Shown piece after piece: positions 9,815 to 57,416 of a DNA stretch of 64,000 bases. Numbering within the stretch: the stretch's first letter is position 1; each line of letters begins with the position of its first letter. Source of the stretch: an uncultured Candidatus Rokubacteria bacterium (GTDB lineage: Bacteria; Methylomirabilota; Methylomirabilia; Rokubacteriales; DASRDR01). The notes under the pieces were generated by a model that searched no databases, was not told the origin of the DNA, and worked only from the letters and a program-made list of their open reading frames with translations. The DNA lies in the NCBI GenBank assembly GCA_963826115.1, contig CAWGVS010000005.1:704001-768000 (forward strand). Reading direction: 5' to 3'. The translations under genes were made by a program, and so were the position numbers.

Positions 9815-9848
9815 TCGCCCCGGGGGCCGCGGCGCGCGGGAGGGGCCG

Positions 9849-13160: not shown

Positions 13161-13234
13161 GGCGCAGATGAGCGGTTGTCTGGAAGTCCGCGTCGCCATG
13201 GACGGAACCCTCTCGACGCGTCCTCGATCCCACC

Positions 13235-14281: not shown

Positions 14282-14756
14282 GGGCGCGCGGCGCGTGGCC
14301 GAGGCGGCCCGTGCCTCCGGCCGCCGCGTCGTCCTCGCCAACGGCTGCTTCGACCTCCTTCACGTGGGGCACGTGCGGTACCTCGAGGACGCCCGCGCCC
14401 TGGGCGACGTCCTGATCGTGGGGATCAACGGCGACGCCTCCGTGCGGCGGCTCAAGGGCCCGGGGCGTCCTCTGATGCCGGCGACCGAGCGGGCGGAGAT
14501 TCTCGCGTCGCTCAGCGCCGTCGACCACGTCGTGGTCTTCGACGCCGACACGGCGGACGGGCTGATCGGCCTGCTGCGCCCGGACGTCCACGCGAAGGGG
14601 ACCGACTACACGGCGGAGTCGGTGCCCGAGCGCGCCGCCGTCCTCGCCGCGGGCGGGCGCGTCGCGATCGCCGGCGACCGGAAGCAGCACTCCACCCGCG
14701 ACCTGATCGCGGAGATCCTGGCGCGGTTCGGCCGGGACCGGGAGGCGATCCGTTGA
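14256..14756 (+). CDS. rfaE2: Heptose-1-phosphate adenylyltransferase (RfaE domain II)
   Basis: NGCFDLLHVGHVRYL, KGPGRP, KGTDY. Confidence 0.93.
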   Translation: MTGRVLDLEGARRVAEAARASGRRVVLANGCFDLLHVGHVRYLEDARALGDVLIVGINGDASVRRLKGPGRPLMPATERAEILASLSAVDHVVVFDADTADGLIGLLRPDVHAKGTDYTAESVPERAAVLAAGGRVAIAGDRKQHSTRDLIAEILARFGRDREAIR

Positions 14757-15790: not shown

Positions 15791-16554
15791 AGACGGGCGG
15801 CGCGGTGCCGAGCCTGTCGGTGGCCGTGGTGGTGCTCAACGAGGAGGAGCGTCTCCGCGCGTGCCTCGAGAGCGTGGTGTGGGCCGACGAGATCGTGGTG
15901 GTCGATGCCGGGTCGAGCGACAAGACGGTGGCGATTGCCCGCGAGTTCACCGACCGGGTGCTGTTCCGGCCGTGGGACGGCTACGTGCCGCAGAAGAACT
16001 ACGCGCTCGACCAGTGCCGGGGCGACTGGCTCCTGTCGCTCGACGCGGACGAGCGGGTGTCGGATGCCCTTCGTGACGAGATCCGGGCCACGCTCCGCGG
16101 CGGCGGCCCCGAGGCGGGCTTCCAGCTCCCGCGGCGGAACCTCTTCCAGGGGCGGTGGGTGCGCCACGGCGGGCTCTACCCCGACTGGCAGCTCCGGCTG
16201 CTCCGCCGCGGGCAGGGGGCGTTCGCCGCGCGCGCGGTCCACGAGTCGGTCACGGTGGACGGGCCGGCGGGGCGGCTCCGGTCGCCGCTGGTCCACGAGA
16301 GCTACCGGAGCATCGGCGACGCGGTCGCGCGCCTGAACCGCTACTCCGATCTCGCCGCCACCGAGCTCGCCCGCGCGGGCCGCGGGGGGAGTCTCCTCGA
16401 CCTCCTGGGCCGGCCGGTGTGGCGGTTCCTGTCGATGTACGTCCTGCGCGCGGGCTTCCTCGACGGGTGGCGCGGCCTGGTGCTCGCCGGGCTCCATGCT
16501 CACTACGTCTTCCTCCGGGCCGCCAAGGTCCGGGAGCGGCGGTGGGCGGCGTGA
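15787..16554 (+). CDS. Glycosyltransferase family 2 (KdtX/WaaE-like)
   Basis: NEEERL, VVDAGSSD, LDADE, YPDWQLRL, GFLDG. Confidence 0.9.
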   Translation: MKTGGAVPSLSVAVVVLNEEERLRACLESVVWADEIVVVDAGSSDKTVAIAREFTDRVLFRPWDGYVPQKNYALDQCRGDWLLSLDADERVSDALRDEIRATLRGGGPEAGFQLPRRNLFQGRWVRHGGLYPDWQLRLLRRGQGAFAARAVHESVTVDGPAGRLRSPLVHESYRSIGDAVARLNRYSDLAATELARAGRGGSLLDLLGRPVWRFLSMYVLRAGFLDGWRGLVLAGLHAHYVFLRAAKVRERRWAA

Positions 16555-17294
16555 CGCGGACCGTGGCCGTGATTCCCGCGCGCTGGGCCTCGATGCGCTT
16601 TCCGGGCAAGGCGCTCGTCGTGATCGGCGGCAAGCCGCTCGTGCAGCACGTCTGGGAGCGCGCGTCCGAGCTCGAAACCGTGGAGCGCGTGGTGGTCGCG
16701 ACGGACGACGAGCGGATCGCCGCCGCGGTGCGCGGGTTCGGCGGCACCGCCGTCATGACCAGCGAGGCCTGCGTGAACGGGACGGACCGCGTCGCCCAGG
16801 CGACTCGGGACTGGCCCGCGGACCTGATCGTGAACCTCCAGGGGGACGAGCCGACGTTCGAGGTGAAGGCGCTCGACCAGCTGGTCCGGGCGATGGCGGA
16901 CGACCCGTCGATCGAGATGGGCACGCTCGCGCACCCGGTCGCGGACGAAGCCGAGCACAAGGACCCGAACGCCGTGAAGGTCGTGCTCGACCAGTCCGGC
17001 CACGCGCTCTACTTCACGCGGGCGCCGGTGCCCTACGCGCGCCAGCCCGGTCTCGTCGTCCCCCTTCGCCACGTGGGGATCTACGTGTTCCGTCACGCGT
17101 TCCTCCAGCGCTACGCGCGGCTGGCCCCGACGCCGCTCGAGCAGACCGAGCGGCTCGAGCAGCTCCGGGCGCTCGAGCACGGCGTCCGCATCCGGGTCCT
17201 GCTGACGCCGCACGGCTCGATCGGCGTGGACACCCCGGCCGACGTCGACCGGCTCGCGGCGTACCTCGCGAGTCGCGAGGGGCGGAGACGGTGA
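16551..17294 (+). CDS. kdsB: CMP-Kdo synthetase
   Basis: VIPARWASMRFPGK, GTDR, NLQGDEP, LEQLRALE. Confidence 0.96.
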   Translation: MTRTVAVIPARWASMRFPGKALVVIGGKPLVQHVWERASELETVERVVVATDDERIAAAVRGFGGTAVMTSEACVNGTDRVAQATRDWPADLIVNLQGDEPTFEVKALDQLVRAMADDPSIEMGTLAHPVADEAEHKDPNAVKVVLDQSGHALYFTRAPVPYARQPGLVVPLRHVGIYVFRHAFLQRYARLAPTPLEQTERLEQLRALEHGVRIRVLLTPHGSIGVDTPADVDRLAAYLASREGRRR

Positions 17295-18277
17295 CCGCCC
17301 GGGCGCGGGTCCTGTCGGGGATGCGGCCCACGGGGCGCCTCCATCTCGGGAACCACCTGGGGGCGCTCGACAACTGGGTGCGCATGCAGGCGGACTACGA
17401 CTGCTTCTACTTCGTCGCCGACTGGCACGCGTTCACCACCGACATCCCGGCCAAGGGGGAGATCGCGACCAACACGCTCGAGATGGTGGCGGACTGGCTC
17501 GGCGCCGGGCTCGATCCCGAGCGCAGCACCTTGTTCGTGCAGTCGCTCGTGCCCGAGCACGCCGAGCTCCACCTCGCCTTCTCGATGGTCACGCCGGTCT
17601 CGTGGCTCGAGCGCGTCCCGACCTACAAGGAGATGGTGGAGCAGCTCGGGATCCAGTCGCCGTCCTACGGGCTCCTCGGGTACCCCTTGCTCCAGGCGGC
17701 GGACATCCTCATCTACCGGCCGCGCTACGTGCCCGTCGGGGTCGACCAGGCGCCGCACATCGAGCTGACCCGCGAGGTCGCGCGACGCTTCAACCACCTC
17801 TTCGGGCCCGTCCTCCTCGAGCCGGAGATCAAGCTGACGTCGATCCCCAAGGTGCCGGGGACCGACGGGCGCAAGATGTCGAAGTCCTACGGCAACGCGA
17901 TCTACCTCGCCGACCCGCCCGACGTGACGGTGCCGAAGATCAAGACGATGGTGACCGACCCGGCGCGGAAGCGTCGGGCGGACCCCGGGAATCCCGACGT
18001 CTGCCCGGTGTTCGACCTCCACAGGATCTTCACGCCCGATGCGCCCCGCGAGGCCGCGGCCCGGGGCTGCCGGACGGCGGGCATCGGCTGCATCGACTGC
18101 AAGGGCGTGCTGATGGAGCACATGCTGCCGCCGCTCGAGGCGATCCGCGAGCGGCGGGAACGCATGGCCGCGCGCCCCGGCCACCTGCGGGAGATCCTCC
18201 AGGAGGGCTCGGCCCGCGCCCGGCGCATCGCCTCCGAGACCTTGGCGGACGTGAAGGCCGCCGTGGGAGTTGCCTAG
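17291..18277 (+). CDS. trpS: Tryptophan--tRNA ligase
   Basis: SGMRPTGRLHLGN (HIGH), YPLLQAADI, KMSKS. Confidence 0.97.
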   Translation: MTARARVLSGMRPTGRLHLGNHLGALDNWVRMQADYDCFYFVADWHAFTTDIPAKGEIATNTLEMVADWLGAGLDPERSTLFVQSLVPEHAELHLAFSMVTPVSWLERVPTYKEMVEQLGIQSPSYGLLGYPLLQAADILIYRPRYVPVGVDQAPHIELTREVARRFNHLFGPVLLEPEIKLTSIPKVPGTDGRKMSKSYGNAIYLADPPDVTVPKIKTMVTDPARKRRADPGNPDVCPVFDLHRIFTPDAPREAAARGCRTAGIGCIDCKGVLMEHMLPPLEAIRERRERMAARPGHLREILQEGSARARRIASETLADVKAAVGVA

Positions 18278-19067
18278 CGTGACCGACACCACGACCGCCG
18301 CTCCCGACGTCGCCACGCCGCCGCCGTCGCCCCTGACGGTGCACCTCGAGGAGTTCGAGGGCCCCCTCGACCTTCTCCTGCACCTGGCGCGGACGAACGA
18401 GATCGATCTCGCGCGGCTGCCCATCCGGCAGATCACGGACCAATACCTGGCGTACCTCGAGTCGGTCGAGTTCCGCGACCTGGACGACGCGGGCGCCTTC
18501 CTCGTCCTGGCCGCGACCCTCGTCTACCTGAAGTCGCGCCTCCTGCTGCCGCCGTCGGAGACCGCGGAGGAGGGTCTGGAGGAGGACGCGGAGGTTCTGC
18601 GGCTGGAGCTCGAGGCTCGGCTCCGCGCCTACGCGCGGGTGAAGGAGCTCGGCGTCTGGCTCCGCGAGCGCGAGACCGAGTGGAGCACGCGCTTCATGCG
18701 GACCTGGAGCGAGCTGCCGGCTCCCGAGTACGTGCCGATCGAGAGCCTGTCGCTCTGGGATCTCACCCAGGCGTACCGGGCATTCCTGACCCGGCTCGCG
18801 CAGGCCGAGCCGACCCGCGAGGTCCAGCCGGAGGGACCGCCCCTCCTCGAACGCATGGAGATGATCACGAGTGTGCTGGAGCAGTCCTGGTACGTGCTGT
18901 TCTCCGCGCTTCTCGGGGTCTCGCCGCCCCGGCCGGAGGTGGTGGTGACGCTGCTCGCGGTGCTCGAGCTCGTGCGGCTCCAGCGCGCGCGGGCGCAGCA
19001 GCGGGAGCTGTTCGGGGACATCGTCATCGAGCGTGGGTCCGGGGAGGCGACCGTCCGTGGCGCCTGA
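18270..19067 (+). CDS. scpA: Segregation and condensation protein A
   Basis: FEGPLDLLL, YLKSRLLLP, LAVLELV. Confidence 0.94.
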   Translation: MPSVTDTTTAAPDVATPPPSPLTVHLEEFEGPLDLLLHLARTNEIDLARLPIRQITDQYLAYLESVEFRDLDDAGAFLVLAATLVYLKSRLLLPPSETAEEGLEEDAEVLRLELEARLRAYARVKELGVWLRERETEWSTRFMRTWSELPAPEYVPIESLSLWDLTQAYRAFLTRLAQAEPTREVQPEGPPLLERMEMITSVLEQSWYVLFSALLGVSPPRPEVVVTLLAVLELVRLQRARAQQRELFGDIVIERGSGEATVRGA

Positions 19068-19083
19068 GGCCGGGGGATCGGCG

Positions 19084-19743
19084 ATGTCCGACGTGGTGAC
19101 CCCCGGGCTCGTGGGCCAGGTGGAGGCGCTCCTCTTCGCCTCCGACGTCCCGCTTCCCTACGAGCGGATCGCCGAGGTCCTGGAGATCTCGCCGCTCGAC
19201 GCCCGCGCGGCCGTCCAGGCGCTTCGGGTGGCTTGCGACGAGCCCGGTCGCGGACTCGCGGTGGCCGAGGTCGGTGGGGGCGTGCGCCTCGTCACGCGGC
19301 CGGAGCACGCGCCCGTGCTCGTGAGCCTGCAGCGGCTCCGGCTGAAGAGCCGGCTGTCGCGGGCCGCAGTGGAGACCCTCACCATCATCGCCTATCGCCA
19401 GCCGATCTCGCGCCCCGAGATCGAGCAGCTCCGCGGCGTCGGGAGTGACAGCGTGGTCACGCACCTGCTCGAGCGCCGCCTCATCCGGATCGTGGGCCGA
19501 AAGGAGACCCCCGGGCGGCCGGTGCTCTACGGGACGACCCGCGAGTTCCTCGAGCACTTCGGCCTCCGGGACCTCGAGGAGCTTCCGCCCTTCGAGTCTC
19601 CCGGCGACGCGGCCGTCGAGGCGGGGGCGGGGACCGACGCGGCGGCGACCGTCGAGGAGCGCGCCGCGGACGACGCGGCCCCCGGGGACGACGCCGGTCC
19701 CGACGAAGTCGGCGAGGAGCGCGAGCGCCCGACGCCCGCCTGA
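19084..19743 (+). CDS. scpB: Segregation and condensation protein B
   Basis: VEALLFAS, ETLTIIAYRQPISR, GRPVLYGTTREFLEHFGL. Confidence 0.95.
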   Translation: MSDVVTPGLVGQVEALLFASDVPLPYERIAEVLEISPLDARAAVQALRVACDEPGRGLAVAEVGGGVRLVTRPEHAPVLVSLQRLRLKSRLSRAAVETLTIIAYRQPISRPEIEQLRGVGSDSVVTHLLERRLIRIVGRKETPGRPVLYGTTREFLEHFGLRDLEELPPFESPGDAAVEAGAGTDAAATVEERAADDAAPGDDAGPDEVGEERERPTPA

Positions 19744-19749
19744 CGGGCC

Positions 19750-20499
19750 ATGCCTCCGGTCCGGCTCCACAAGCTCCTGGCCGAAGCAGGCGTCGCGTCG
19801 CGGCGGGCCGCGGAGCGGCTCATTGCGGCGGGCCGCGTGAAGGTCAACGGCCTGCCGGTGGTGGAGGCGGGCGCCCACGCCGATCCCGATCAGGACGCGA
19901 TCGAGGTCGACGGCCGGCCGCTTCCGCGGGCGGAGCCCAAGCGCTACGTCCTCCTCCACAAGCCTCGCGGATACCTCACCACGCGCGAGGACCCCCGCGG
20001 CCGGCCCCGCGTGTTCGACCTGGTCCCGGAGCCGGGCGTCCGCCTCCACTCGGTCGGCCGGCTCGACTTCGACGCGGAGGGGCTCCTCCTCCTGACCAAC
20101 GACGGCACGCTGACGTTCCACCTCACGCACCCCAGCCACGGCGTCCGGCGCGTCTACCACGTCCTGGTCGAGGGGCGCCTCGAGCCGGACACGCTCCGAG
20201 CGCTGGAGCACGGGGTCGTGCTGGAGGACGGGCCGGCGCGCGTCGACCGGGCGCGGCGGCTCCGGGACGGCGGAAGCGGCCTCCGCTGGATCGAGCTCGC
20301 CCTGTCCGAGGGGCGCTACCGGGAGGTCAAGCGGCTCTGCCGCGCGGTGGGCCTGGTCGTGCACCGCCTCCGCCGCGTCGCCTTCGGCCCGCTCGAGCTG
20401 GGAGAGCTCCCGCTGGGGCAGTGGAGGGAGCTGACGCGCGCCGAGGTGGAGCGCCTGGCGCGGTCCGGCTCCGGGCCGGCCGGGCGGCCGCAGGGCTAG
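19750..20499 (+). CDS. rluB: rRNA pseudouridine synthase, RsuA/RluB family
   Basis: S4 domain RLHKLLAEAGVASRR, GRLDFDAEGLLLLTNDG. Confidence 0.88.
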   Translation: MPPVRLHKLLAEAGVASRRAAERLIAAGRVKVNGLPVVEAGAHADPDQDAIEVDGRPLPRAEPKRYVLLHKPRGYLTTREDPRGRPRVFDLVPEPGVRLHSVGRLDFDAEGLLLLTNDGTLTFHLTHPSHGVRRVYHVLVEGRLEPDTLRALEHGVVLEDGPARVDRARRLRDGGSGLRWIELALSEGRYREVKRLCRAVGLVVHRLRRVAFGPLELGELPLGQWRELTRAEVERLARSGSGPAGRPQG

Positions 20500-47827: not shown

Positions 47828-47904
47828 GCCCCCGTAGCTCAGTTGGATAGAGCAAGGGTTTCCTAAACCCTGGGCCGGGTGTTCGATTCACCCCGGGGGC
47901 ACCA
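47828..47904 (+). tRNA. tRNA-Arg(CCT), island integration site
   Basis: GCCCCCG acceptor, AGGGT-TTCCTAA-ACCCT anticodon arm, GTTCGATTC, CCA. Confidence 0.96.
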
Positions 47905-49555
47905 ACTCCGCTACAGCACCCTCGAGCAGCGGGTCCACCGTCACCGTCCCGGTGATTTCGTAGCAGCGACCCTCCGGGGTCTCCCGTGGCGTCAGCGTCA
48001 ACCGGCCCGGCAACAGGCGCCGCAGAATGGGTCGGGCCTCGCTGGGCTCACCGCGCAGCAAGGTGGCCCACTCAGCCAACACCGCGCGCACCATCGCCTT
48101 CAGGGCCGGGGTGACCGTGGGCCGGGTTGACCGACGTCGCGCCTCGACGTTCTGTAGCTGGGCCGCCAGGGTGGCCCGGTGCTGCTCCTGCTCGCGCATC
48201 TTCTCCATCAGGCGCGCCGGGGGCTTGCCATCGGCGATGGCCGACACGAAGTTGTCGAGGATCCGGTCCACTCGCTTCATGTCGCGCTCCAGACGCTGGC
48301 ACTGGGCGTCGAGCGTGGCGTACTGCGCCGCGGCCTCCGCCACGGCCTGCGCCAGCACGTCCTCCAGCAAGGTGGTCGTCAGCACCTCCTCGTCCAACAC
48401 CGCCAGCATCGCCGCGTCCAGGTCGGGCAGGGGCAGGGACCAGCCGTTCGTACAGGTGCCATCGACGCGCCAGCCGTTGCAGACGTAGTAGACGCGCGGG
48501 GTGCCGCGTCGGCTCGTCCGCTTGATTGCATGCATCGCCCCGCCACACGTTCCACAGCGGACCAGGCCTCCGAACAGGTGGCGCGACTCCAGCGCCGGGT
48601 CGGGGCGCGCCCCCGTCTCCCGATGATTGCCGACGCCCCCGGTGTACGTCTGCCGGGTGCGTGCCAGGCGAGCATGGGCGGCGGTCCACAGGGTCTCGGG
48701 GATGATCCGGCACTCGGGCACCTTGACGTCGATCCAGTCGTCGGCAGGGACGGCTTCCTTGACCTTGGTGCCGCCGCGGTCCACCCAGCGTGTCTTGCCG
48801 TAGATCGACCGGCCTCGGTACAGGTCGCGGAAGGCCATCTCCCACAGGCACGTCTTCGCCCACCCTCGGCCCGGTCGTGGCCCCGGCACCCCCTCGGCAT
48901 TGAGCCCGCGGGCGATGCGCGCGTAGCCGCGGCCCTGGGCGATCTCCGTGAACACGCGGGTGACCACGGCGGCCTGGGTCGGGTCGATCACCCGCACCAC
49001 ATGGCCCTCGCGCCGCACGTTGGTGTACCCGTAGACCTTGCCGCCGGCCACGTGGCCGGCGCGTGCCTTGCCCCGCCCGACATCGCGCGCACGCTGCTGG
49101 TCCTGCTGTCGGTGCATCTCATCCACCATCGCCATCGTGGACACTAGGTACCGGTCCAGGAGGGTGTCGCGCTTCACCTCGCTGTCGGTGAGGTAGCAGT
49201 AGATGCGCACCCCGGCGTCGGTGATGCGTTTGAGCGCCACGGGGACCTCCTCCAGCGAGCGTCCCAGCCGGCTTTGCTCCATGGTGACCACCACCTGGAA
49301 TGAGGGCCGGGGTTTCAGGGCGTTCATCAGCCGCAGGAACCCTGGCCGCTTCACGAACTCGGCCCCGCTGATGCCGTCGTCGATGTACACGTGCGCGGGG
49401 TCCACCGTCCAGCCCTTGCGTGTCGCGTAGGCGGTGGCGTGCTCGACCTGGCGGGTGACGCTCTTGGCCTCGTCGGCCACCCCGCCTTGCTCGGTGCTCT
49501 TGCGAGCGTAGATGGCTGCGGTCAGGTGGGGGGGTGCTACACTGGGCCTGCTCAT
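47888..49555 (-). CDS. Large serine recombinase (integrase), integrated form ending within the tRNA antisense
   Basis: AIYARKS catalytic motif, DDGISG, SRLGR, YGY recombinase domain, CGTCG..YYVC..C zinc ribbon, coiled coil; GGAGG RBS before ATG 49555. Confidence 0.95.
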   Translation of the reverse strand: MSRPSVAPPHLTAAIYARKSTEQGGVADEAKSVTRQVEHATAYATRKGWTVDPAHVYIDDGISGAEFVKRPGFLRLMNALKPRPSFQVVVTMEQSRLGRSLEEVPVALKRITDAGVRIYCYLTDSEVKRDTLLDRYLVSTMAMVDEMHRQQDQQRARDVGRGKARAGHVAGGKVYGYTNVRREGHVVRVIDPTQAAVVTRVFTEIAQGRGYARIARGLNAEGVPGPRPGRGWAKTCLWEMAFRDLYRGRSIYGKTRWVDRGGTKVKEAVPADDWIDVKVPECRIIPETLWTAAHARLARTRQTYTGGVGNHRETGARPDPALESRHLFGGLVRCGTCGGAMHAIKRTSRRGTPRVYYVCNGWRVDGTCTNGWSLPLPDLDAAMLAVLDEEVLTTTLLEDVLAQAVAEAAAQYATLDAQCQRLERDMKRVDRILDNFVSAIADGKPPARLMEKMREQEQHRATLAAQLQNVEARRRSTRPTVTPALKAMVRAVLAEWATLLRGEPSEARPILRRLLPGRLTLTPRETPEGRCYEITGTVTVDPLLEGAVAELVPPG

Positions 49556-49663
49556 CACGGTCCTCCTCCAAAGGTCGGGCTTGATGGGCCAGCGCCCGGC
49601 GGTGTGCACCGCGCGGGCGCTACCTATTTACGGTCACGCAGCATACACGACCGTCCTGCCAGG

Positions 49664-51046
49664 CTACGCTCTCTTCGCCGACGCCCTCGGCCCCGGCCCC
49701 TCCGTGCGTGCCATGGTCGCGACGGGGGCGGGGATACCCGAGATCAACGCGAACCACGTCTCCCGCGAGACGACCACATCGGCGCGCAGCACGGCCCGAA
49801 TCCACAGTTGGTAGGCCGCGAATGCGCTACCGCTGCTGTCGGCCGCGTCCCGACTGATGGTCAGTTCCAGGGCCAGCCGCAGGCAGATGAACAGGTTCGC
49901 GAACGGCCCGAGGTAGGCTTCGCTTTCGTTTGTCCCGGCGCCGCCGGTGGCACTCACCTGCGTGGTGACGAACTTCTGGAGCCGGCCCCAAGACTCCGGG
50001 GGCCGCAGCGGCTGCTGGGTGCTGTCCTTCAGGCGATCCAGCGCCCCGGCATCCCGCGGGTGCAGAATCAACGACACGCCCTCCGCCGGCCCGTTGGCCG
50101 CCAGGATTCCTTCGTAGGCTTCGCTGATCGTGTCGTAGGTCAGCGCGCCGCCGGCCGGCATCGCGATGATGCCAGGCGTGAACTTGATGCCGCGCGGCTG
50201 GTCCTGGCCGGCGGCGGAGGGATCGCCCCGAAGGGCCGCGAGGTCGAGGCCGTTCGCGAGTTCCTCGCCGAAGACCTGCTCGATGACCGGCGGCGCGCTG
50301 GGCGAGCTGTCCCGGGCCAGCTCTTCGCTCATCTTCACCCAAATCATCTGCGTCCGCGCCTTCGCGGACACGCGATCCAGCACCACGTCGGTCGCCGGGG
50401 CGGCGACATTCTCCGGCTTCCAGAGCGGCGGCCCGGCCGACACGACTCGGGCGAAGTGTAGTTCCTGCGTGTCCATCGGAATCGTGCGAGCCCCGGCCCG
50501 AAAGACGGTACTGGCGGCGCGCGCGCGGTCCAACACATCGAGGGCTATCGCCTCCGGGACGAGATAGCCGCCACTGGCGCCGGGGCTGGTGGCCATCACG
50601 CGCTGTTCGGCCTGGGCGTCGCGCCAGTCCCCGGTGATGATCGCCCGCAGGGCGCGACCGAACGAGAGGTCGCCCGGCCGGATACCATCCGGCAACCGCA
50701 CCGGCACGTGGCTGCGCAGCGACTCGGATGGCGTCAGCGCCAGCACAGACCCTCGGTCGCTGATCGCCGCGTCCTCCTGCCGGCGAGCGGCCCGGGTCGG
50801 CAGCGGCTCGCTCAGTTCGCGCTCCACCGCGTCGAGGTTCTCGCGGCCGGCGATGTACGACCGCCGCGGGGCGTGGTCGGGGTCGAGGGCGGCGATCTGC
50901 TCGGCCGCGCGGCCCTGCACCAAGTCGAGGCGATCCCACTCGGCCGACTCCGTGTCGGTCATCGCGCGGCCCTCGGTGCTGGCCACCAGGGCGCGCATGG
51001 ACTGGACGATTTCTCCCCGCTTCTGCCGTAATTCCGTGAGGGTCAT
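49664..51046 (-). CDS. HK97-fold phage major capsid protein with N-terminal delta domain
   Basis: LTELRQKR coiled-coil start, SGGYLVPE, W.PEN, KMSEEL.RDS, D.AAL.GD..QPRGI, LKDSTQQPL. Confidence 0.9.
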   Translation of the reverse strand: MTLTELRQKRGEIVQSMRALVASTEGRAMTDTESAEWDRLDLVQGRAAEQIAALDPDHAPRRSYIAGRENLDAVERELSEPLPTRAARRQEDAAISDRGSVLALTPSESLRSHVPVRLPDGIRPGDLSFGRALRAIITGDWRDAQAEQRVMATSPGASGGYLVPEAIALDVLDRARAASTVFRAGARTIPMDTQELHFARVVSAGPPLWKPENVAAPATDVVLDRVSAKARTQMIWVKMSEELARDSSPSAPPVIEQVFGEELANGLDLAALRGDPSAAGQDQPRGIKFTPGIIAMPAGGALTYDTISEAYEGILAANGPAEGVSLILHPRDAGALDRLKDSTQQPLRPPESWGRLQKFVTTQVSATGGAGTNESEAYLGPFANLFICLRLALELTISRDAADSSGSAFAAYQLWIRAVLRADVVVSRETWFALISGIPAPVATMARTEGPGPRASAKRA

Positions 51047-51323
51047 CGGGCACGCTCCCCTACTGCGGGCCTCGGGAGCGGGTGGGAGGGCGTGGCGGAG
51101 GCCCAATCGTGGCCACGCGTCCACCCGCCCCCGAAGCACGCATGCTCGGACGGTGATGGTCGCGCGCCTGATCGCCTGAGCCACAGCCGGCGGGCCAGCG
51201 CAGCGCCGGTCGCGCCCGGTGCCCCACAGGGCCGCGCGCGCCGGTGGCCGGTTCAGTTGTGGGCGCATCATATGGCAGAGCGGGGCTGAGAAGGCAAATC
51301 CCCCTGGTGATACCCTGGTGCCC

Positions 51324-52082
51324 GTGTCTCCGCGGGTCGAAGTCCTTCCCATCCGCCTGATGCTGCCGGGAGCCTTGCCCGAGAGCGACGTTCGCACGGT
51401 CCCGCTCCTGCGGCTCATGGCGGCCACGAACGACACCCGCCTGATGGAGCGGCTGTTCTTGGTGACCCGCCGGCCCGAGAATCACATCGAGAGGCTCGTA
51501 TGCCTCGCAGAGGCGGGCTACTACGGTCGCATGTTCCTGGCGCACCTCTACGAAAGCGGAGAGGCGCTCGGAGCCTTGGACCATGTGGCCCACGCCTGGG
51601 TGACGAACACCGCCGCCAGCTCGGCTGAAGCCCAGGCGGCACTGACCAGCTTGCGGGAGGCCTTTGCGGGTGAACCCACGGCGGGCTTCTACGGGTTCTT
51701 GGCGTGGATGCGCACGAAGGCCGCGTTCCACTACAAGGACGCCTCGTTCCGGGACGCACTGAAGACCACCGGGAGGCAATCGGGCCACGTCATCCTCGGT
51801 AGGTATGCCGGAGCGAGTCGGTACATCGTCGTGGACGTCCTGATGGATGAGGTCCTCAAGAAGGCGGGGAAGGAGATGATGGTGGACTACGACGCGGCCC
51901 TTGGTCGCGCGGTCGAACTGGGGAACGCCCTGGAGCGGCTCGTCGCCCATCTCCTCACCCACTACCTGCAGGAGCGCCCTGCCACGTGGCGCGAGGAACC
52001 GTGGGAGACGGTGCACTGGCCCGCAGCCCTGAGGAAGCGGACGAAACAAAGCGAGACAGACGAAGGGCCGCCGGCATGCTAG
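51324..52082 (+). CDS. Accessory protein with HEPN-like RxxxxxH motif
   Basis: Long ORF opposite to the element operon; WMRTKAAFHY at about 51705-51734; start uncertain (possible leaderless GTG after TGaTACCCT). Confidence 0.65.
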   Translation: MSPRVEVLPIRLMLPGALPESDVRTVPLLRLMAATNDTRLMERLFLVTRRPENHIERLVCLAEAGYYGRMFLAHLYESGEALGALDHVAHAWVTNTAASSAEAQAALTSLREAFAGEPTAGFYGFLAWMRTKAAFHYKDASFRDALKTTGRQSGHVILGRYAGASRYIVVDVLMDEVLKKAGKEMMVDYDAALGRAVELGNALERLVAHLLTHYLQERPATWREEPWETVHWPAALRKRTKQSETDEGPPAC

Positions 52083-52456
52083 GCCTGGCCCTCCTGATTC
52101 GTTTCGGCCGCCGCGGTGATCTCGGCCCAGGGCACCGCGAGTAGTTCCGTCAGTTGCACGTCCCGGCCTTCGGCATCCACGGGAAACAGCATGACCCGGT
52201 CGAATCCCAGCAGTCCCGCACAGGCGGCATTGAAGCGCGTGGACTCCTGGAAGAAGCGCCGGATGGTGGCCCAGCGTTCCCGTTCCGCGTCATCCGTGGC
52301 CCGCCGCTCGTTGAGCCAGTGCCGCGCATCCCGGTCGAATCCGTAGGCCAGCGCCCCCAGCACGTTCAGCGGCTGGCCCTGCAGCAGCCGCACCGTCTGC
52401 AGGTGGGCCAAGGCCACCGCGGTGCCGGGTGTCATCGGTCCGGGGTCGGTTGTCAT
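52079..52456 (-). CDS. Hypothetical protein (125 aa)
   Basis: ATGA overlap with terS, GGAGG RBS. Confidence 0.7.
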   Translation of the reverse strand: MTTDPGPMTPGTAVALAHLQTVRLLQGQPLNVLGALAYGFDRDARHWLNERRATDDAERERWATIRRFFQESTRFNAACAGLLGFDRVMLFPVDAEGRDVQLTELLAVPWAEITAAAETNQEGQA

Positions 52457-52926
52457 GGGCGGCCCCCCTCCTGCGCCCGCAGCAGTGACTCCATGGCGTC
52501 CGGCGGGGCCGCGGGCGTTAACGGTTCCACCGTGCCGCGGGCTGCCGGTGCCAGCCCCAGCGCGCGCAATGCGAGCAGACAACGGCGCCACGCATCGGCC
52601 ATCAGCGCGCACTCGGGCCGTACCCGGATGAGTCCGTTGTGGGCGTACGACTCTCCGTGCTCACGGAGGAACGCGCGGTGCCGATCGAAGTCGGCCCGTG
52701 CACTGGCCGCCAGCAGGATCGCGGCGCCGTCTCCCCGCGTGGCGAGCCGCTGCGCGTCCATCTCGGCCGCCAGGGCGTCGTAGTGGGCGCGCACGTCAGC
52801 ATCGAGCCCCAGCGGGGCCGGCGGCGCTCCCACGTCCGCGGGTTTCATCTCCAGCGCCGGCCGCTCGCGGTCGGGGCGCAGCGTGCCGCGGCGGGCCTTC
52901 GATTCACGGCGACGGCGAGGAGGCAT
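52453..52926 (-). CDS. Phage terminase small subunit, P27 family
   Basis: RGTLRPDR, PPAPLGL, G....RP...M.DAWRR, LGLAPAAR. Confidence 0.85.
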   Translation of the reverse strand: MPPRRRRESKARRGTLRPDRERPALEMKPADVGAPPAPLGLDADVRAHYDALAAEMDAQRLATRGDGAAILLAASARADFDRHRAFLREHGESYAHNGLIRVRPECALMADAWRRCLLALRALGLAPAARGTVEPLTPAAPPDAMESLLRAQEGGRP

Positions 52927-52949
52927 CAGTCAGACCACCGGGTGCCCAG

Positions 52950-53045
52950 GAATCTCGGCGCGCGTGGCCATCGGACCGTCGTGCCTGCGCAGGCGGGTAG
53001 GGACCACTCAGGCGCTAGCTTTTTGCCCCGCCCTCCCCCGCGCGA
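52950..53045 (-). other. Candidate cos/packaging site
   Basis: Non-coding gap upstream of terS reading GGGGGAGGGCGGGGCAAAAAG..ACCCGCC..GCGCGCCGAGATT on the minus strand. Confidence 0.5.
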
Positions 53046-53153
53046 ATCCGACGCACAGGCCACAAGGTGGCCCGCCGTCCCCACGCCCAGCCCTTGGCCT
53101 ATGTGCACGTAGCTCCCCCCTCCACCCCCGTGGGGCTCAGGGCAACGTCGGGG

Positions 53154-53390
53154 TCATGCATGGAGCGGGCAGGCGCACCGCGCGGGGTGCGGGGGCATCG
53201 GAGCCGTCGGGCAGTTCCCGCAATCGCAGCCCGCCCGGTGGGGCTGGTTGAGCCGCAGGAGTCGCATCCCGAACACGCGCTTCCGCATCCGGCGAAACCG
53301 CGGCGGGGGCTTCTGCTCTTTCTGTGCGGCTGCGACGGCGCGGTAGGCGTCCTTCGGGGTGGTGCTGTCGTCGTTCGTCCTGTCCGTCAT
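53154..53390 (-). CDS. Small basic Cys/His-rich protein (78 aa)
   Basis: AGGGAG RBS; ends HRAGCDCGNCPTAPMPPHPARCACPLHA. Confidence 0.55.
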   Translation of the reverse strand: MTDRTNDDSTTPKDAYRAVAAAQKEQKPPPRFRRMRKRVFGMRLLRLNQPHRAGCDCGNCPTAPMPPHPARCACPLHA

Positions 53391-53473
53391 GGTCGTGTCC
53401 TCCCTGCTGTTGGTGTGGGGCTGGGGCGCTCCATCAAAGAGGCCGATCTCCAGGTCGCTCCATCGCCGGCCCA

Positions 53474-53755
53474 TCATCGAAGCTCCTGCAGGTCGGGCGT
53501 GCGTGCTCGGTGCCGCCAGCGGTGCAGCAGCTTGCGCACGTTGGGCGGCACCGCGTACTCGGTCAGAGCCGCGCGCTCCAGCAACCCCGGCCAGTCCCGC
53601 GTGCGCACCTGCACCAGCACCACGTCGGTGGTGCCGATGCCGACGATGTCCCACTCGCCCAACGAGGCCGCACTGCGCGTGCAGCGGTAACCCGCGGCTT
53701 CCAGCAGGGCCATGGAGCGGTGCTCGTTCCGGGTGCCCTTCCGCTTCGCGTTCAC
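53474..53755 (-). CDS. Hjc-like PD-(D/E)XK Holliday-junction resolvase
   Basis: NAKRKGTRNE..LEAAGY...RSAAS..WDIVG..VLVQVR. Confidence 0.75.
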   Translation of the reverse strand: MNAKRKGTRNEHRSMALLEAAGYRCTRSAASLGEWDIVGIGTTDVVLVQVRTRDWPGLLERAALTEYAVPPNVRKLLHRWRHRARTPDLQELR

Positions 53756-54283
53756 TCCAGGGGCTCCAACGACGACGGCCGCTGCGGCAGGCGGGCACCG
53801 AGACGACGCGGGCCGGGGTCGGCGGCCGGTGCCGGCGGGGGTGAGGGCACGCTCGGCTGCGGGGCCGGCGCCAGGGCGCTCGCCCGGTGCAGAAACTCCG
53901 GGGGCAGGCCGCCCAGCCGGCGCAGCGCCTGGGTGTACACGGCCTGCACGACGGCCTCTTGCTGCTGGAGCCACTGAAGCTCCCGGCGGAACGGAGCCAG
54001 CCGATGGTCGCGGGTGCGGGCCGTCGTGGCCGTCGCGAGCGCCGTGCAGCCGGCTGACGACGGTCTCCGTGCAGCGTGGGCAGGCCAACGCGGTGCTCTG
54101 GTCCTCCGTGTTGAAGACTGCGAACGTGACGAGGAAGTGATCGAGCAGGACCCCACACCAGGCGCAGCGGGTCAGTCGGGGCACGAACCACGACAGACGG
54201 TCAATCGGTGGCGGCACCGGTCGCCGGCGGCGCGGCTTGCCCTTCTTCGTCGGCTGGGTCATGTCGTCGGGCTGGCCGCTCAT
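53752..54283 (-). CDS. Zn-finger hypothetical protein(s), frame ambiguous
   Basis: ATGA-coupled to rep; CAWC..CPRC; a second coding-like frame ends at 53752 with GTGA overlap onto the Hjc start. Confidence 0.5.
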
Positions 54284-55266
54284 GCGGCCTCCGCCCCGAC
54301 GTTGCCCGCGCCCCAGCCATACCGAACCAGATCGCCCCAGCGGCGCGGTCGGCCCGTCACGCTGGGGTCGTCGTCGGGGTCGGCCACCTCCAGGTCGTCT
54401 CCTGGTGGCGGGGCCGGTGCCTGCGCCCCGCCGTCGTCGCCGGTCGGGTGATCGTCGTTCTCGGTGTGCATCCGTGCCTCCGGTTCTCGCCCGTAGGTTG
54501 CGCAGCGCGCCAGCGTGGCCATGAATCCATCGTCGCGGTCCAGGATCGGTCCGATCCGCTCCGGTCCGGTTTCGATCCGGCCCCTTGAGGCTGAAAGCCC
54601 ATCCGAACCCCCCCGTGCGTCGGGGGGGTAGGGGGGGTTCTTTCGAACCCTTTCTGTCGGAGTCTGAGAAGAAGTCGGCGGGACCATCGGCGCTCGCGTG
54701 TCTGGGACCATCGGCGCTCGCGCAACACCCGGCGCGGAATCGGTAGACCTGGAGCGGCGATTCCTGGGCGATACCATCGGCGCTCGCGGGTCGTCTACCA
54801 TCGGCGCTACCATCGGCGCTGACCCCCCTAGCATCGGCGCTCCGCTGGGCTGCACCATCGGCGCTGGCGCCAGGCCGTCACTCCGTGATGGCACGTCTTC
54901 GTGCGGGGTTGCGGTGCCACGGACCATCGGCGGTGACGCGCCGTGTACCATCGGCGCTTCCAGGCCCATGGCCCCCGGCAGGATGCGGATGGTGGTGAAG
55001 CCGGCGCTGCCCTCGTCGGGGTACCGCACAGCCTCCGTGGCGATCCAGCCGCGGGTCCGCAAGGTCTGAAGGAACCGACTCACGGCACGCGGGCTCCACC
55101 CCCAGCGCCGGGCGAGTTCGACCTGGGACGTGTCGAGCACCAGCGCGCCTGTGTGCCAGTGTGCGGAGAGCAACAGGTACAGCCAGGCGTCCAGGCGGTT
55201 GATGCGTCCCGTTGGCCAGAGCGGATCATCCAGGAGCGAACGCGGCAGCTTCACCCAGCCGGTCAT
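54280..55266 (-). CDS. Phage replication initiator (replisome-organiser type wHTH)
   Basis: GWVKLPRS..W..RLDAWLYLLL..LARRWGWS..V.RFL; KNPPYPP motif; internal iterons. Confidence 0.85.
   Translation of the reverse strand: MTGWVKLPRSLLDDPLWPTGRINRLDAWLYLLLSAHWHTGALVLDTSQVELARRWGWSPRAVSRFLQTLRTRGWIATEAVRYPDEGSAGFTTIRILPGAMGLEAPMVHGASPPMVRGTATPHEDVPSRSDGLAPAPMVQPSGAPMLGGSAPMVAPMVDDPRAPMVSPRNRRSRSTDSAPGVARAPMVPDTRAPMVPPTSSQTPTERVRKNPPYPPDARGGSDGLSASRGRIETGPERIGPILDRDDGFMATLARCATYGREPEARMHTENDDHPTGDDGGAQAPAPPPGDDLEVADPDDDPSVTGRPRRWGDLVRYGWGAGNVGAEAA
54683..54958. repeat. Iteron array (putative ori) within rep
   Basis: ACCATCGGCGCT perfect at 54683, 54707, 54773, 54797, 54809, 54854, 54947; one-mismatch copies at 54830, 54923. 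Confidence 0.85.
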
Positions 55267-55469
55267 TCCCTCGTCTCCGGCCGAGTGCCCGGCTGGTCCG
55301 ACTCCGCGGCCAGCCGACGCTCGGCCTCGCGCAGGATCATCCTCGCCAGCAGGCCCACCAGGTCCTCGTACTCGACCGACCCGCGGGTCGGCACGCGGAA
55401 GAGCCGTGCACCGGCGACCGGCCGCGCCTGGTGGATCACGCGGGCGGGGCGGGGGCGCGCTGTCCTCAT
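55263..55469 (-). CDS. Small hypothetical protein (68 aa)
   Basis: ATGA overlaps with both the HTH and rep genes; amphipathic helix LVGLLARMILREAERR. Confidence 0.7.
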   Translation of the reverse strand: MRTARPRPARVIHQARPVAGARLFRVPTRGSVEYEDLVGLLARMILREAERRLAAESDQPGTRPETRE

Positions 55470-55687
55470 GGCTGGCCGTTGCGGGCGAGAGGCGGGTCGA
55501 ACAGGTTGCCCAGCGGGACGCGGAGGGAGCGAGCAAGGCGCACCTTGGTCTGCCAGGACGGCACGGACAGACCTCGTTCCGCGCGCGAGATGGTGCCGAT
55601 GTCGAGGCCGGTCAGGTGGGAGAGGTCGCGCAGCGTGAGGCCACGCTCCTTCCGCCAGCGCCGCAGAGGATGCGGGTGCGCGCCCAT
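55466..55687 (-). CDS. XRE/Cro-like HTH regulator
   Basis: LRRWRKERGLTLRDLS.LTGL...TISRAERG. Confidence 0.9.
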   Translation of the reverse strand: MGAHPHPLRRWRKERGLTLRDLSHLTGLDIGTISRAERGLSVPSWQTKVRLARSLRVPLGNLFDPPLARNGQP

Positions 55688-55892
55688 GGGTCCACCACGC
55701 GGTCACAAGGTGGCTGGCGAGCGCGAAGCGGCACCGCCATGGTGCTGAACCGCTCGCCGGACCGGCACCCGCTCGTTGTGTGGGCGCGCGCGCAGGTGCT
55801 CGCTGAGAGCACCGCCGATCCGCGATGTGGGTGGGGACGCGGGGTGGTGCTCTCAGCCGTATCATCTACACCGGCCCCATGGGCAGCGCAAC

Positions 55893-55920
55893 AAAAAAAC
55901 GCTTGGCTCGGGTCGCCGCG
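55893..55920 (-). terminator. Putative intrinsic terminator after the inner integrase tail
   Basis: CGCGGC-GACCCGA-GCCAAGCG followed by T7 on the minus strand, immediately after TGA 55921-55923. Confidence 0.5.
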
Positions 55921-55995
55921 TCAGGCGGCGCGACGAAGGGTGACGATTGTCCGGATCGGCCAGGCGTAGCGCGGGCCGGACCCCGCCGGGGGCAC
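55921..55995 (-). other. attP half-site encoding integrase C-terminal tail (inner copy)
   Basis: Reads VPPAGSGPRYAWPIRTIVTLRRAA* in the integrase frame across the core. Confidence 0.8.
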
Positions 55996-56045
55996 ACCCT
56001 TACACCTGGTGCGCGGTGCTATCCAGAATTCGCGCGGGCGCCCGC

Positions 56046-56372
56046 TTACTTGAGCATGCGAATCATCAACGCGACGACTAGTAGACTGGAGATCGGAACG
56101 GTCAGGACCAACCAGGTTAGGACATGGAGTTGCCGGCGAAGTCTCAGCAGGGCAGTGTCACCGCGAAGGATCTCCGCCGATCGCTGCCGATAGAAGAAGA
56201 ACAGCTGTTCCGGATGGCGTATCCCCCAAAAGGCCTCGGGCATCACCTTCTCTGCAACGTTGGGGTACCGTCGCATGAACTGAAGCTGCAATCGGGCGCC
56301 CACGATGCCCATTGCAAGGAAGAGGATCCCGTTGCCGAGGAACAGAAGCACACCTACCAGCGGGCTGACCAC
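56046..56372 (-). CDS. Small two-TM membrane protein
   Basis: 108-aa ORF with hydrophobic N- and C-terminal helices; TAGAAT -10 at 56418-56423 (minus). Confidence 0.7.
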   Translation of the reverse strand: MVSPLVGVLLFLGNGILFLAMGIVGARLQLQFMRRYPNVAEKVMPEAFWGIRHPEQLFFFYRQRSAEILRGDTALLRLRRQLHVLTWLVLTVPISSLLVVALMIRMLK

Positions 56373-56428
56373 GACCCCACCCCCGCGCGACTCCTCAGGT
56401 TTGTGTCGGCGGCCGCTATTCTACGCTC

Positions 56429-56506
56429 CTACGCTGCGCGCCGGAGCGCGACGAGTCGCCGGATCGGTCGCGAGTAGCGTGGGCCGGACCCCGCCGGGGG
56501 CACCAA
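56429..56506 (-). other. attP half-site encoding integrase C-terminal tail (outer copy) / attR
   Basis: Reads LVPPAGSGPRYSRPIRRLVALRRAA*; 29/30 nt identical to 55966-55995 over 56474-56503. Confidence 0.8.
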
Positions 56507-56548
56507 TTAATCAAGTAGTTACGCGACACCATTTCTGAGACGAGCCGG

Positions 56549-56572
56549 TTTTGTGGCGATTTTTGTGGCGAT
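56549..56572. repeat. 12-bp tandem repeat, tyrosine-integrase arm-site-like
   Basis: TTTTGTGGCGAT x2, 42 nt after the att core. Confidence 0.6.
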
Positions 56573-56761
56573 CTTGAGTCGGAGGTCCTGAGACGGCCCC
56601 CAACATCCCAGGCGGCGGAAGGAACCGTTATCATCCCAGTCGTGGGCTAGGCGTCGGCTACCTACCGACGTTTAACGAGCAGAATCCTCGCCGCCCTGCC
56701 CGCGGAATGTCCCCCGAGGCGTTCCACCCGAGGAGAAGCGACACGTAGAGGAGGGCGATCA

Positions 56762-57187
56762 ATGCCGGCGAATCCGCTCATCGGGACGTGGCGGCTCGTG
56801 TCGTGGGAGCTGCGGGACGCGGATGGCCGTGTCACGTACCCCTGGGGTCGCGATCCAGTAGGGTTCATCACGTATACCGTGGACGGGCGCATGGCTGTGC
56901 AGTTTGGGCGTTCGGACCGCGCTCAGCTCTCCGTTGCCGATTGGCTGGCCGCATCTGACGCGGAGATCGTGGCGGCGGCCCGGGGCTACTTCGCATACTG
57001 CGGCACCTACGAGTGCCGAGACGACACGGTCGTGCACCGGCTGGACCTCTGCCTGATGCCCAACTGGATCGGCGGAGAGCAGGTGCGCCAGGTCGCGTTG
57101 AAGGGGGACACCGTCACTCTCTTCACGCCGCCCACCCAGCTCGGCGGCCAGCAACGGGCCAGCAGCCTCGTCTGGCGGCGAGTGTGA
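56762..57187 (+). CDS. Lipocalin-like domain protein
   Basis: LIGTWRLVSW, P.G.ITYT.DGRM, YFAYCGTY, PNWIG.EQ.R, LVWRR. Confidence 0.88.
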   Translation: MPANPLIGTWRLVSWELRDADGRVTYPWGRDPVGFITYTVDGRMAVQFGRSDRAQLSVADWLAASDAEIVAAARGYFAYCGTYECRDDTVVHRLDLCLMPNWIGGEQVRQVALKGDTVTLFTPPTQLGGQQRASSLVWRRV

Positions 57188-57221
57188 AGCCAACCCCGTA
57201 AGCGACAGGCTCGTGGGCTAG

Positions 57222-57252
57222 TGAACCGCCCCGGGAAACCCGGGGCGGTTCA
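57222..57252. repeat. Perfect 14-bp palindrome resembling fused IS3-family ends
   Basis: TGAACCGCCCCGGG-AAA-CCCGGGGCGGTTCA. Confidence 0.75.
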
Positions 57253-57416
57253 GTCGCACGGTGCGAGCTTGGGCGCTTCCGTTCTTCGCTACGCGTCCTG
57301 GCCATCGCTTTTCAAGGCCATGAAAGTGTGGGAGGGGTTATGTACCATCTGAACGACTCGACCCACACGGAGGTCGATCCAAGCGCGGCAGTTCAATGCT
57401 CACCAGGAGGCGGGAC

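Follow-up and report, generated by a model that had tools for sequence, protein, structure and literature searches.

Borrowing particle parts from a helper phage is an established lifestyle of small mobile elements, and several of the islands that follow it encode a capsid protein of their own. In SaPIbov5, the protein Ccm fills the pentamers and gives rise to small T=4 heads, according to PMC8569155, and its redirection of capsids blocks phage reproduction (PMC8569155 and PMC6092414). PmCI172 and EcCICFT073 are presented in PMC6092414 as satellites in which a homolog of the capsid protein is the main structural gene product. The subject of this report is an insertion of 8.6 kb in a 64,000-nucleotide stretch of DNA, hereafter the window, from an uncultured Candidatus Rokubacteria bacterium (Methylomirabilota; NCBI GenBank assembly GCA_963826115.1, contig CAWGVS010000005.1, positions 704,001 to 768,000 of the forward strand). 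The insertion carries genes for an HK97-type major capsid protein, a small terminase subunit (TerS) and a large serine recombinase (LSR), and is likely to be an integrative phage satellite resembling the phage-inducible chromosomal islands (PICIs).

Like SaPIbov5, PmCI172 and EcCICFT073, the element is a small integrative island with an HK97-type capsid homolog as its main structural gene and with no genes for portal, large terminase subunit (TerL) or tail. Unlike the SaPIbov5-type PICIs, with which it is compared by description only, it places its LSR gene last, behind the capsid gene, relies on a winged helix-turn-helix (HTH) and iteron initiator with neither primase nor helicase, encodes a P27 TerS as well, shows no AlpA or Stl-type layout, and resides in an uncultured soil phylum. 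PICIs as defined by Fillol-Salom 2018 and SatelliteFinder have a regulator of the Stl, AlpA or MerR type, a primase-replicase beside its origin, and no further virion or lysis genes. Functional analogues of all five PICI features (integrase, regulator, replication gene with origin, TerS, and capsid gene) are present, in forms that differ from those of PICIs: a serine integrase at the operon end, a Cro/CI-type regulator, and iterons inside rep.

The other described families overlap with the element to differing degrees. The model of capsid-forming PICIs (cf-PICIs) in PMC10085698 has 11 core components, of which at least nine are needed; the element has only five analogues (integrase, regulator, replication, TerS, and capsid) and so falls outside it. 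Like cf-PICIs such as EcCIEDL933, it encodes its own HK97-type capsid protein and TerS; unlike them, it has no match to TerL, portal, protease, HNH, head-tail adaptor or connector. The EPIPs of Mycolicibacterium aichiense, satellites of ∼11 kb that were isolated as particles, encode a serine integrase, TerS, major capsid protein and HTH protein, with no TerL or portal listed, together with a scaffolding protein, a head-to-tail adaptor and stopper, and a tape measure protein (PMC12822802). The serine integrase, TerS and capsid protein of that definition are present here and the remainder was not found: unlike EPIPs, with which it is again compared by description, the element has no adaptor, stopper or tape measure match in Pfam, PHROGs or NCBIfam and is known from its genes alone. 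PICI-like tycheposons of Prochlorococcus carry "either" a major capsid protein or a TerS, and a few use LSRs, according to 10.1101/2020.12.28.424599; unlike these tycheposons, which are reported to be without cargo, the element combines a capsid protein, a TerS and cargo in an unrelated host phylum, a comparison that also rests on descriptions.

The element is not one of the P4-like satellites, which are marked by an alpha primase, AlpA, Sid/Psu/Delta/Eps genes and a tyrosine integrase, as it has no match to primase, HTH_17/AlpA or Psu-type proteins and its integrase is of the serine type. PLEs remodel ICP1 capsids with the scaffold TcaP and not with a capsid-protein homolog. Both PLEs and the element integrate by way of a large serine recombinase, with no evident gene overlap beyond that class of enzyme. 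A first reading of the DNA, made from the sequence only, had counted the PLEs of Vibrio cholerae among users of tyrosine integrases, which is wrong: in PMC9618062, serine recombinases are encoded by the reference PLEs and also used by some marine VEIMEs, although the latter are without capsid genes. The same reading overstated its case in proposing a distinct satellite type, given the precedents of SaPIbov5 Ccm, PmCI172, EcCICFT073, the tycheposons and the EPIPs. The element fits no described family cleanly, yet works like them; what is undescribed is this lineage and layout. A literature search of partial coverage, supplements not included, returned no paper on this capsid lineage or on any Rokubacteria satellite.

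Capsid, terminase and integrase genes at a tRNA-Arg insertion site

The capsid protein matches PF05065 over residues 159-434 (5e-22; 79 bits against a cut-off of 24.2) and TIGR01554 over residues 3-430 (3.8e-27; 95.4 bits against a cut-off of 27.5). This full-length match, which includes the delta region, places the protein by sequence in the HK97 family. The TerS matches PF05119 (Terminase_4; 3.5e-10; 40.6 bits against a cut-off of 24.7) and PHROG 83 (2.3e-16), and scores 29.4 bits against TIGR01558, under the equivalog cut-off of 45.6; judged by these profiles, it is a member of the P27 family and not a curated equivalog. The LSR contains Resolvase (PF00239, 1.3e-21), Recombinase (PF07508, 1.6e-16) and Zn_ribbon_recom (PF13408, 3.6e-13) domains and matches the PHROG 95 integrases at 5.9e-73, and a catalytic-serine context, YARKSTEQ, is readable in its translation. 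Catalytic, Recombinase and zinc-ribbon domains within a protein of 450-700 aa are the marks of a large serine recombinase, and the predicted product has all of them.

These matches bear on the idea that the element is an integrative, plasmid-like entity whose HK97-fold protein has a non-viral role, in a compartment of the encapsulin kind or a particle like a gene-transfer agent. The HK97 fold also occurs in proteins with non-viral uses, and the lack of a portal or terminase motor would suit such a role. Against this, the capsid protein matches a phage capsid family over its full length, delta region included, a phage TerS lies in the same element, and some relatives sit with S78 proteases, portals and TerL, which together make a non-viral role highly improbable.

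The insertion comprises 8,601 bp between two copies of a 13-bp direct repeat, CCGGGGGCACCAA, at the 3′ end of a tRNA-Arg(CCT) gene, the sole match of an Rfam scan, in a window with a G+C content of ∼70%. The sequence to the right of 56506 resembles the native tRNA-downstream sequence in three of the four same-genus loci in which the tRNA 3′ end was found (L187, L190 and L191, not L189). This marks 56506 as the true right end and, with the repeat at both ends, identifies the 8,601 bp between as the insertion. The boundaries of 47893 and 56506 proposed in the sequence-only reading are thus exact, as judged from the repeat positions. That reading also called the att ends intact, and the 13-bp core is indeed perfect on both sides; the element as a whole is less plainly intact, given a zinc-finger gene whose coding frame appears to switch near 54000-54030.

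Genes were called from a frame plot of G+C at third codon positions (GC3), start-codon context, and scans with Pfam, PHROGs and NCBIfam (Table 1). Read leftward, the order is HTH regulator, sm68, Rep, zinc-finger protein, Hjc-like nuclease, Cys-rich protein, TerS, hyp125, a plus-strand cargo gene, capsid protein, and LSR, an anatomy that had largely been recognized in the sequence-only reading, including an integrase gene in last place directly behind the capsid gene. The translational coupling by ATGA or GTGA reported earlier is also present, with overlaps at six junctions (HTH/sm68, sm68/Rep, Rep/zinc finger, zinc-finger tail/Hjc, Hjc/next open reading frame (ORF), and TerS/hyp125). The claim of a single minus-strand operon does not hold, as the cargo gene at 51360-52082 separates the capsid and LSR genes from the others. 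The cargo gene ends tail-to-tail with hyp125, and 313 bp lie between it and the capsid gene; the opposite strand and this gap suggest that the capsid and LSR genes are probably a separate transcription unit with its own promoter. In agreement with the earlier account, no ORF of the element matched portal, TerL, protease, tail, lysis, primase or AlpA families in Pfam, PHROGs or NCBIfam.

Table 1. Features of the element and its insertion site (window coordinates)
Feature	Coordinates	Strand	Basis or remark
tRNA-Arg(CCT), integration target; 3′ end rebuilt by the element	47828..47904	+	ARAGORN; Rfam tRNA, 67 bits
LSR (555 aa); stop and last five codons inside att core and tRNA	47888..49555	-	Pfam, PHROG 95; start codon and RBS
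attL core, left copy of 13-bp direct repeat CCGGGGGCACCAA	47893..47905	.	identical to 56494-56506
HK97-type major capsid protein (460 aa), ∼158-aa N-terminal delta/scaffold-like region	49664..51046	-	Pfam, NCBIfam, PHROG 10
22-nt inverted repeat (86%) in capsid/cargo intergenic region (313 bp), upstream of capsid gene; candidate regulatory or packaging site	51064..51142	.
Cargo gene (240 aa), probable HEPN (AbiU2-like) protein	51360..52082	+
hyp125, helical, translationally coupled to TerS	52079..52456	-	ATGA overlap
TerS, P27 family	52453..52926	-	Pfam PF05119; PHROG 83
Small Cys-rich protein (78 aa from 53390, or 107 aa from ATGA-coupled start 53477)	53154..53477	-	GC3
Hjc-like PD-(D/E)xK nuclease (93 aa), GTG start overlapping upstream stop (GTGA)	53474..53755	-
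Zinc-finger protein gene (CxxC...CxxC), frame shift near 54000-54030	53752..54283	-	GC3; both frames read
Rep, initiator: N-terminal winged HTH (DnaD/lambda-O-like), iteron-encoded APMV repeats, acidic C-terminus	54280..55266	-
Iteron array, ∼10 copies of ACCATCGGCGC, within rep; presumed origin	54675..54958	.
sm68 (68 aa), ATGA overlaps on both sides	55263..55469	-	GC3
Cro/CI-type HTH regulator, first gene of leftward unit	55466..55687	-	HTH_31 5.8e-10, HTH_3 3.7e-09
15-nt inverted repeat (93%, 26-nt spacer), 115-170 bp upstream of HTH gene; candidate operator, regulatory or packaging site	55802..55857	.
Inner diverged copy (82%) of 71-nt right end, including 10 bp of core; second attR-like site	55925..55995	.	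repeat search
108-aa membrane protein in lower-GC segment between right-end copies	56046..56372	-	ORF; GC3; GC 0.63-0.67
attR: element-side arm and 13-bp core (56494-56506); native tRNA-downstream sequence beyond	56433..56506	.

Capsid-only islands among the relatives

The capsid protein has 28 homologs in a large protein collection, mostly on short contigs, and its best counterpart in an isolated phage is 28% identical. Loci with capsid relatives were gathered from viral (63), metagenomic (80) and genomic (29) sources at 21-43% identity, and the relatives with 30-43% identity lie mostly in similar small islands or in circular contigs of 6.5-10.8 kb, in several phyla. In 14 of 21 loci annotated with Pfam, the surroundings of the capsid gene contained none of portal, TerL and protease; two loci had an S78 protease only, and five had a portal, accompanied or not by TerL and protease. 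In the first set annotated, all nine genomic or metagenomic loci were free of these genes within 7 kb (L153 was left out as identical to L080), and the second set of 12 comprised five with none, two with protease only, and five with portal. Hidden Markov models (HMMs) built from the annotated portals, TerLs and proteases gave a similar result: of the 23 loci with at least 4 kb on both flanks, 13 had none of the three genes, among them the top seven scorers. Eight distant loci scoring below 61 bits, in which genes may be missed, were left out of this count, and the 13 include three Azospirillum copies that are nearly identical.

The loci without portal, TerL and protease, here called capsid-only, are clustered on a tree. 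A quick maximum likelihood analysis of 37 capsid proteins puts the window in a group of 22 rows, 17 of which are capsid-only, with an SH-aLRT value of 83, which is not strong. The capsid-only label changes six times on this tree, compared with 11.5 times in shuffles, and none of 500 shuffles was as low. The tree also includes cf-PICI-like relatives, L006, L009 and L165, and one from genome G087 of the same order as the host. HNH nucleases or a P27 TerS are often present in the capsid-only islands, and the replication genes vary, including AAA_25 helicases, Prim-Pol, DUF927, and D5-like or DnaB-like proteins.

Three capsid-only loci (L148, L088 and L092) combine an LSR with this capsid type and lack a recognisable portal, TerL or protease, and in the first two the LSR gene lies behind the capsid gene as it does in the window. 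L148 (6453-17108), from a Sphingomonadaceae metagenome-assembled genome, contains a 9.1-kb island that splits comM (Mg-chelatase-like) and has an HNH gene, with the capsid gene followed directly by the LSR gene. As a side observation, the cargo of L148 is a DNA methylase-Mrr fusion, and BREX genes (PglZ and BrxL) adjoin. L088 is a contig of 9,627 bp with a 127-bp terminal repeat, and thus a closed circle; its circular order of LSR, primase-helicase, TerS and capsid is the same as in the window element. Five contigs with direct terminal repeats, L088 among them, are closed circles of 6.5-10.8 kb. The occurrence of capsid relatives mostly in small islands or circles, and of LSR and capsid genes together in loci without portal, TerL and protease, argues that the element is not a gutted prophage. 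Full prophages as close relatives, which would have spoken against the satellite interpretation, were not seen among the relatives examined, which reach at most 43% identity.

Other genes of the element are less widely shared. In a tblastn search of all element proteins against 144 loci, which remained of 146 once the two copies of the window's own locus were set aside, a second gene was shared in only seven loci (LSR or TerS, 25-39% identity), and hyp125, the cargo protein, Rep, the zinc-finger protein and the small proteins had no relative in these loci. Further capsid-only islands carry a tyrosine integrase (L147, L154, L156, L080 and L077). The LSR has 1,502 homologs, the best at 61% identity, and none of the 120 listed lies on a contig of the same size as those of the closest capsid homologs, so that a conserved pairing of LSR and capsid gene in the nearest relatives is not supported. 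The closest capsid relatives use either tyrosine integrases or LSRs, and this, together with the lack of a contig-size match among the listed LSR homologs, suggests a module that can be swapped.

Comparative data suggest that small capsid-only elements, with or without TerS or HNH, are common in many phyla, and may be overlooked by current satellite finders, whose models cover P4, PICI, cf-PICI and PLE. More tentatively, and with the balance of probability tilted somewhat the other way, the element could belong to a cross-phylum "capsid-swap" class of satellites in which a self-scaffolding HK97 capsid protein builds a complete small shell on a stolen portal, protease, motor and tail. The candidate members keep only the HK97 capsid protein, often with a TerS or HNH, and are seen here in Methylomirabilota, Chloroflexota, Pseudomonadota, Acidobacteriota, Myxococcota, Bacillota and Actinomycetota. 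If real, the class would occupy a stable middle position: PICIs remodel the shell of a helper, whereas cf-PICIs bring a whole head. The biology extends known satellite strategies and adds no new principle.

Two further sets of capsid matches were noted in passing. L165 (Roseomonas sp. contig67, an isolate genome) is circular, with 10,833 bp and a 123-bp terminal repeat; it has genes for TerL, capsid, S78 protease, portal, AAA_25 helicase and primase, no integrase or tail genes, and may be a plasmid-like capsid-forming satellite. Several records named "Escherichia phage vB_EcoS-..." match the capsid protein at 23%, and their size of 11-21 kb suggests cf-PICI-like satellite genomes deposited as phages.

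Host genome, helper search and mobility

The host genome, 99% complete in 12 contigs, has a single PF05065 match and a single PF05119 match, both in the element, and has no TerL (PF20441, PF03354 or PF03237), PF04860 portal or S78 protease. The lack of these genes in the host and in 14 of the 21 loci annotated with Pfam agrees with the earlier preference for a satellite over a deleted prophage. The HK97-like helper that was proposed to lend TerL, portal, protease and tail stays a supposition, with none found in the host genome. Among 183 genomes of the order, the host genome (G000) included, only G000 and G087 have a capsid match. The G087 element (L262, G087:C71 ∼9800-19800) is ∼10 kb long and tail-less, and encodes a tyrosine integrase, an AlpA-like HTH protein, a DUF3854 primase and AAA_25 helicase, HNH, TerL, an S78 protease-capsid fusion and a portal.

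Public sequencing data were searched for traces of the element. Five DNA runs share 5-8% of its sequence words, and no RNA run was among the matches. One low-depth run contig bridges attL in the integrated state, and odd contig junctions at 54795>49438 (X2) and 49455>55785 (X3) fit neither an excised circle nor an empty site.

Several points weigh against a functional satellite. The closest capsid homologs (one at 74% identity, one at 82% over 69%, and three at ∼50%, on contigs of 4.9-8.7 kb) lie outside the examined loci, so that the synteny described here is that of more distant relatives. The capsid-only label partly rests on the purpose-built HMMs, which failed to pick up a portal-like ORF of the SPP1 type, found by Pfam, in L015. 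The capsid protein occurs in one of 15 genomes of the genus, G000 alone, making the element a singleton. No helper phage was identified in the host genome, and the G087 locus, which was considered for that part and rejected, is tail-less with its own head genes and thus a cf-PICI-like satellite itself. No excised circle or empty site was seen in four soil and plant runs, which yielded only low-depth contigs and are uninformative on excision and expression. One operon gene, for the zinc-finger protein, carries an apparent frameshift, and no excision-directionality factor, cos or pac site, promoter or terminator was recognised in the element.

Such points could be expected of a decaying, immobile remnant, whether of a larger cf-PICI-like element with its own head genes or of a prophage. 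The apparent frameshift, the status of the element as a singleton in genus and order, and the lack of both a helper and a visible excised form are consistent with decay; a second, diverged copy of the right end and a lower-GC segment of 0.5 kb suggest past rearrangement, and portal, TerL and protease accompany the capsid gene in some of the relatives on the tree. Yet the genes for LSR, capsid protein, TerS, Rep and HTH regulator are of full length and their matches span the families, the six overlapping stop/start junctions have been kept, and the 13-bp att repeat is perfect. The capsid-only state clusters on the tree across several phyla, complete circular elements of 9-10 kb with the same reduced gene set exist, and the frameshift may be an assembly indel. 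On this evidence a remnant is unlikely, and the element is real, well bounded and probably functional, a probable PICI-like satellite with a minimal capsid and TerS hijacking module and a serine integrase.

If it belongs to the tentative capsid-swap class, it would be the first such mobile element proposed for Rokubacteria, an abundant soil lineage, and would imply still unseen HK97-like phages infecting the phylum. The literature search, which was partial in coverage, brought up neither a cultured phage nor a satellite of Rokubacteria. The capsid/TerS pair predicts the type of helper phage to seek. The element also offers, as further handles, a defined tRNA-Arg att site and a candidate serine integrase with short att sites, an enzyme class of use in genome engineering.

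Proposed cycle, cargo and accessory features

The gene set is compatible with a satellite cycle that is proposed as follows. A helper phage would relieve the HTH-controlled leftward unit, and the LSR would excise the element together with a directionality factor, for which sm68 is a candidate by inference only. Rep would then fire the origin inside its own gene with the helicase and primase of the host, and the Hjc-like nuclease would trim branched DNA. The TerS would mark satellite DNA and recruit the TerL of the helper. The capsid protein, acting as its own scaffold, would assemble on the helper portal, and the helper protease would mature the shell; the satellite protein might form the whole shell or occupy defined positions as Ccm does in SaPIbov5 (PMC8569155). 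The outcome would be helper tails attached to small heads with room for 8-9 kb. The HK97 shell is of T=7 and holds about 40 kb, and by our own scaling from it a T=3 shell would be the fit for 8-9 kb. Through abortive-infection defence, the HEPN-like cargo gene may repay the host.

The cargo protein, recorded in its 240-aa form, has seven relatives besides its own record, and in all eight sequences R118 and H124 are invariant, an Rx5H spacing within the Rx4-6H range of HEPN proteins. An AlphaFold2 model is all-helical (pLDDT 78.8), and VIA-align placed HEPN toxins at ranks 1-3 with Z scores of 8.5, 7.9 and 7.3, which are weak for helical bundles. The ESM Atlas gave similarities of 0.92-0.96 to unnamed and AbiU2-like HEPN clusters, to be taken as a lead only. 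No Pfam match was found even at E 5, no PADLOC match, and no Foldseek match in the PDB at E≤0.001. With moderate confidence, the gene is a probable abortive-infection-type HEPN gene.

Such cargo raises the prospect that the element is mainly a defence island, in which the capsid protein and TerS are decoys that poison the head assembly and packaging of phages and capsid transfer is secondary or absent. Besides the HEPN-like gene, this is favored by Ccm of SaPIbov5, which blocks phage reproduction (PMC8569155 and PMC6092414), and by the restriction-modification type cargo of related islands, such as the methylase-Mrr genes of L148 and L152. A full life-cycle set of LSR with att sites, Rep with iterons, resolvase and TerS would, however, be superfluous for a pure decoy, circular relatives of satellite size exist, and interference and transfer are coupled in known satellites. 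A primarily defensive island is therefore quite unlikely.

In the replication module, Rep matches Pfam HTH_Crp_2 (4.5e-06) and the DnaD-like (1.9e-07) and O-like (5.2e-05) families PHROG 186 and 391, with no primase or helicase domain recognised in it. The iterons noted in the sequence-only reading are borne out: 10 of the 15 matches to ACCATCGGCGC in the window, with at most one mismatch, lie within 54683-54957, inside rep. Only 4.5 matches are expected per 64 kb, and 15 were reached by none of 100 shuffles. In the zinc-finger gene, the GC3 plot and reading of the sequence show a first frame without a stop and a second frame without a start, an apparent +1 frameshift or assembly indel. The label of Hjc for the nuclease is weak by Pfam (Hjc E 0.13; UPF0102 E 0.0067), and nothing below E 0.33 was found among PDB sequences, but it is backed by the ESM Atlas (0.98; 229 of 256 features), in which phage clusters have PF01870 Hjc in 26-60% of members. 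The small Cys-rich protein matched no family in PHROGs, NCBIfam or Pfam.

Downstream of TerS, hyp125 has only five weak relatives among 1.84 billion representatives and an AlphaFold2 model with pLDDT 90, and Foldseek searches of the PDB and BFVD gave nothing at E≤0.001. A relationship of hyp125 to terminases was considered and rejected: its profile matched the element TerS with a probability of 0.2, and a row named "terminase small subunit" at E 1.2 is no evidence. The two inverted repeats of Table 1 occupy the two long non-coding stretches of the element. A promoter scan returned no promoter-like sites, and five weak terminator-like sites compared with 2.5 expected; in a genome this rich in G+C, such results carry no information.

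In the reconstructed attP, a G+C-rich dyad is flanked by outer inverted repeats of 6 bp. In the modelled excised form the LSR reading frame extends ∼20 codons further; the overlap of the attP core with the end of the gene thus implies an LSR C-terminus ∼20 residues longer in that form. An attP overlapping the end of the integrase gene is known in other elements. The inner copy of the right end means that the active unit may be either 8.09 kb (to 55995) or 8.60 kb (to 56506). Tandem integration was rejected as the source of this copy, since the sequence after 55995 is unlike the end of an LSR gene. The segment with the 108-aa membrane gene may be the remnant of an older element, or cargo; its product had no family match in Pfam, PHROGs, NCBIfam or a defence scan. 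G+C was observed to fall to 0.63-0.67 over 55996-57300, from the inner right-end copy through lipocalin-like and DinB genes, and homologs of DinB on other contigs in relatives suggest that the right flank may itself be accessory DNA.

In related genomes, partial copies of 45-49 nt of the tRNA-Arg 3′ end occur 6-19 kb downstream of the gene (G174:C10:334248-353892 and G163:C32:14169-19873). The copies suggest that islands lie there in tandem, with the long att repeats usual for tyrosine integrases and not a 13-bp core as in the window element, and the tRNA-Arg gene is an integration hot spot in the genus.

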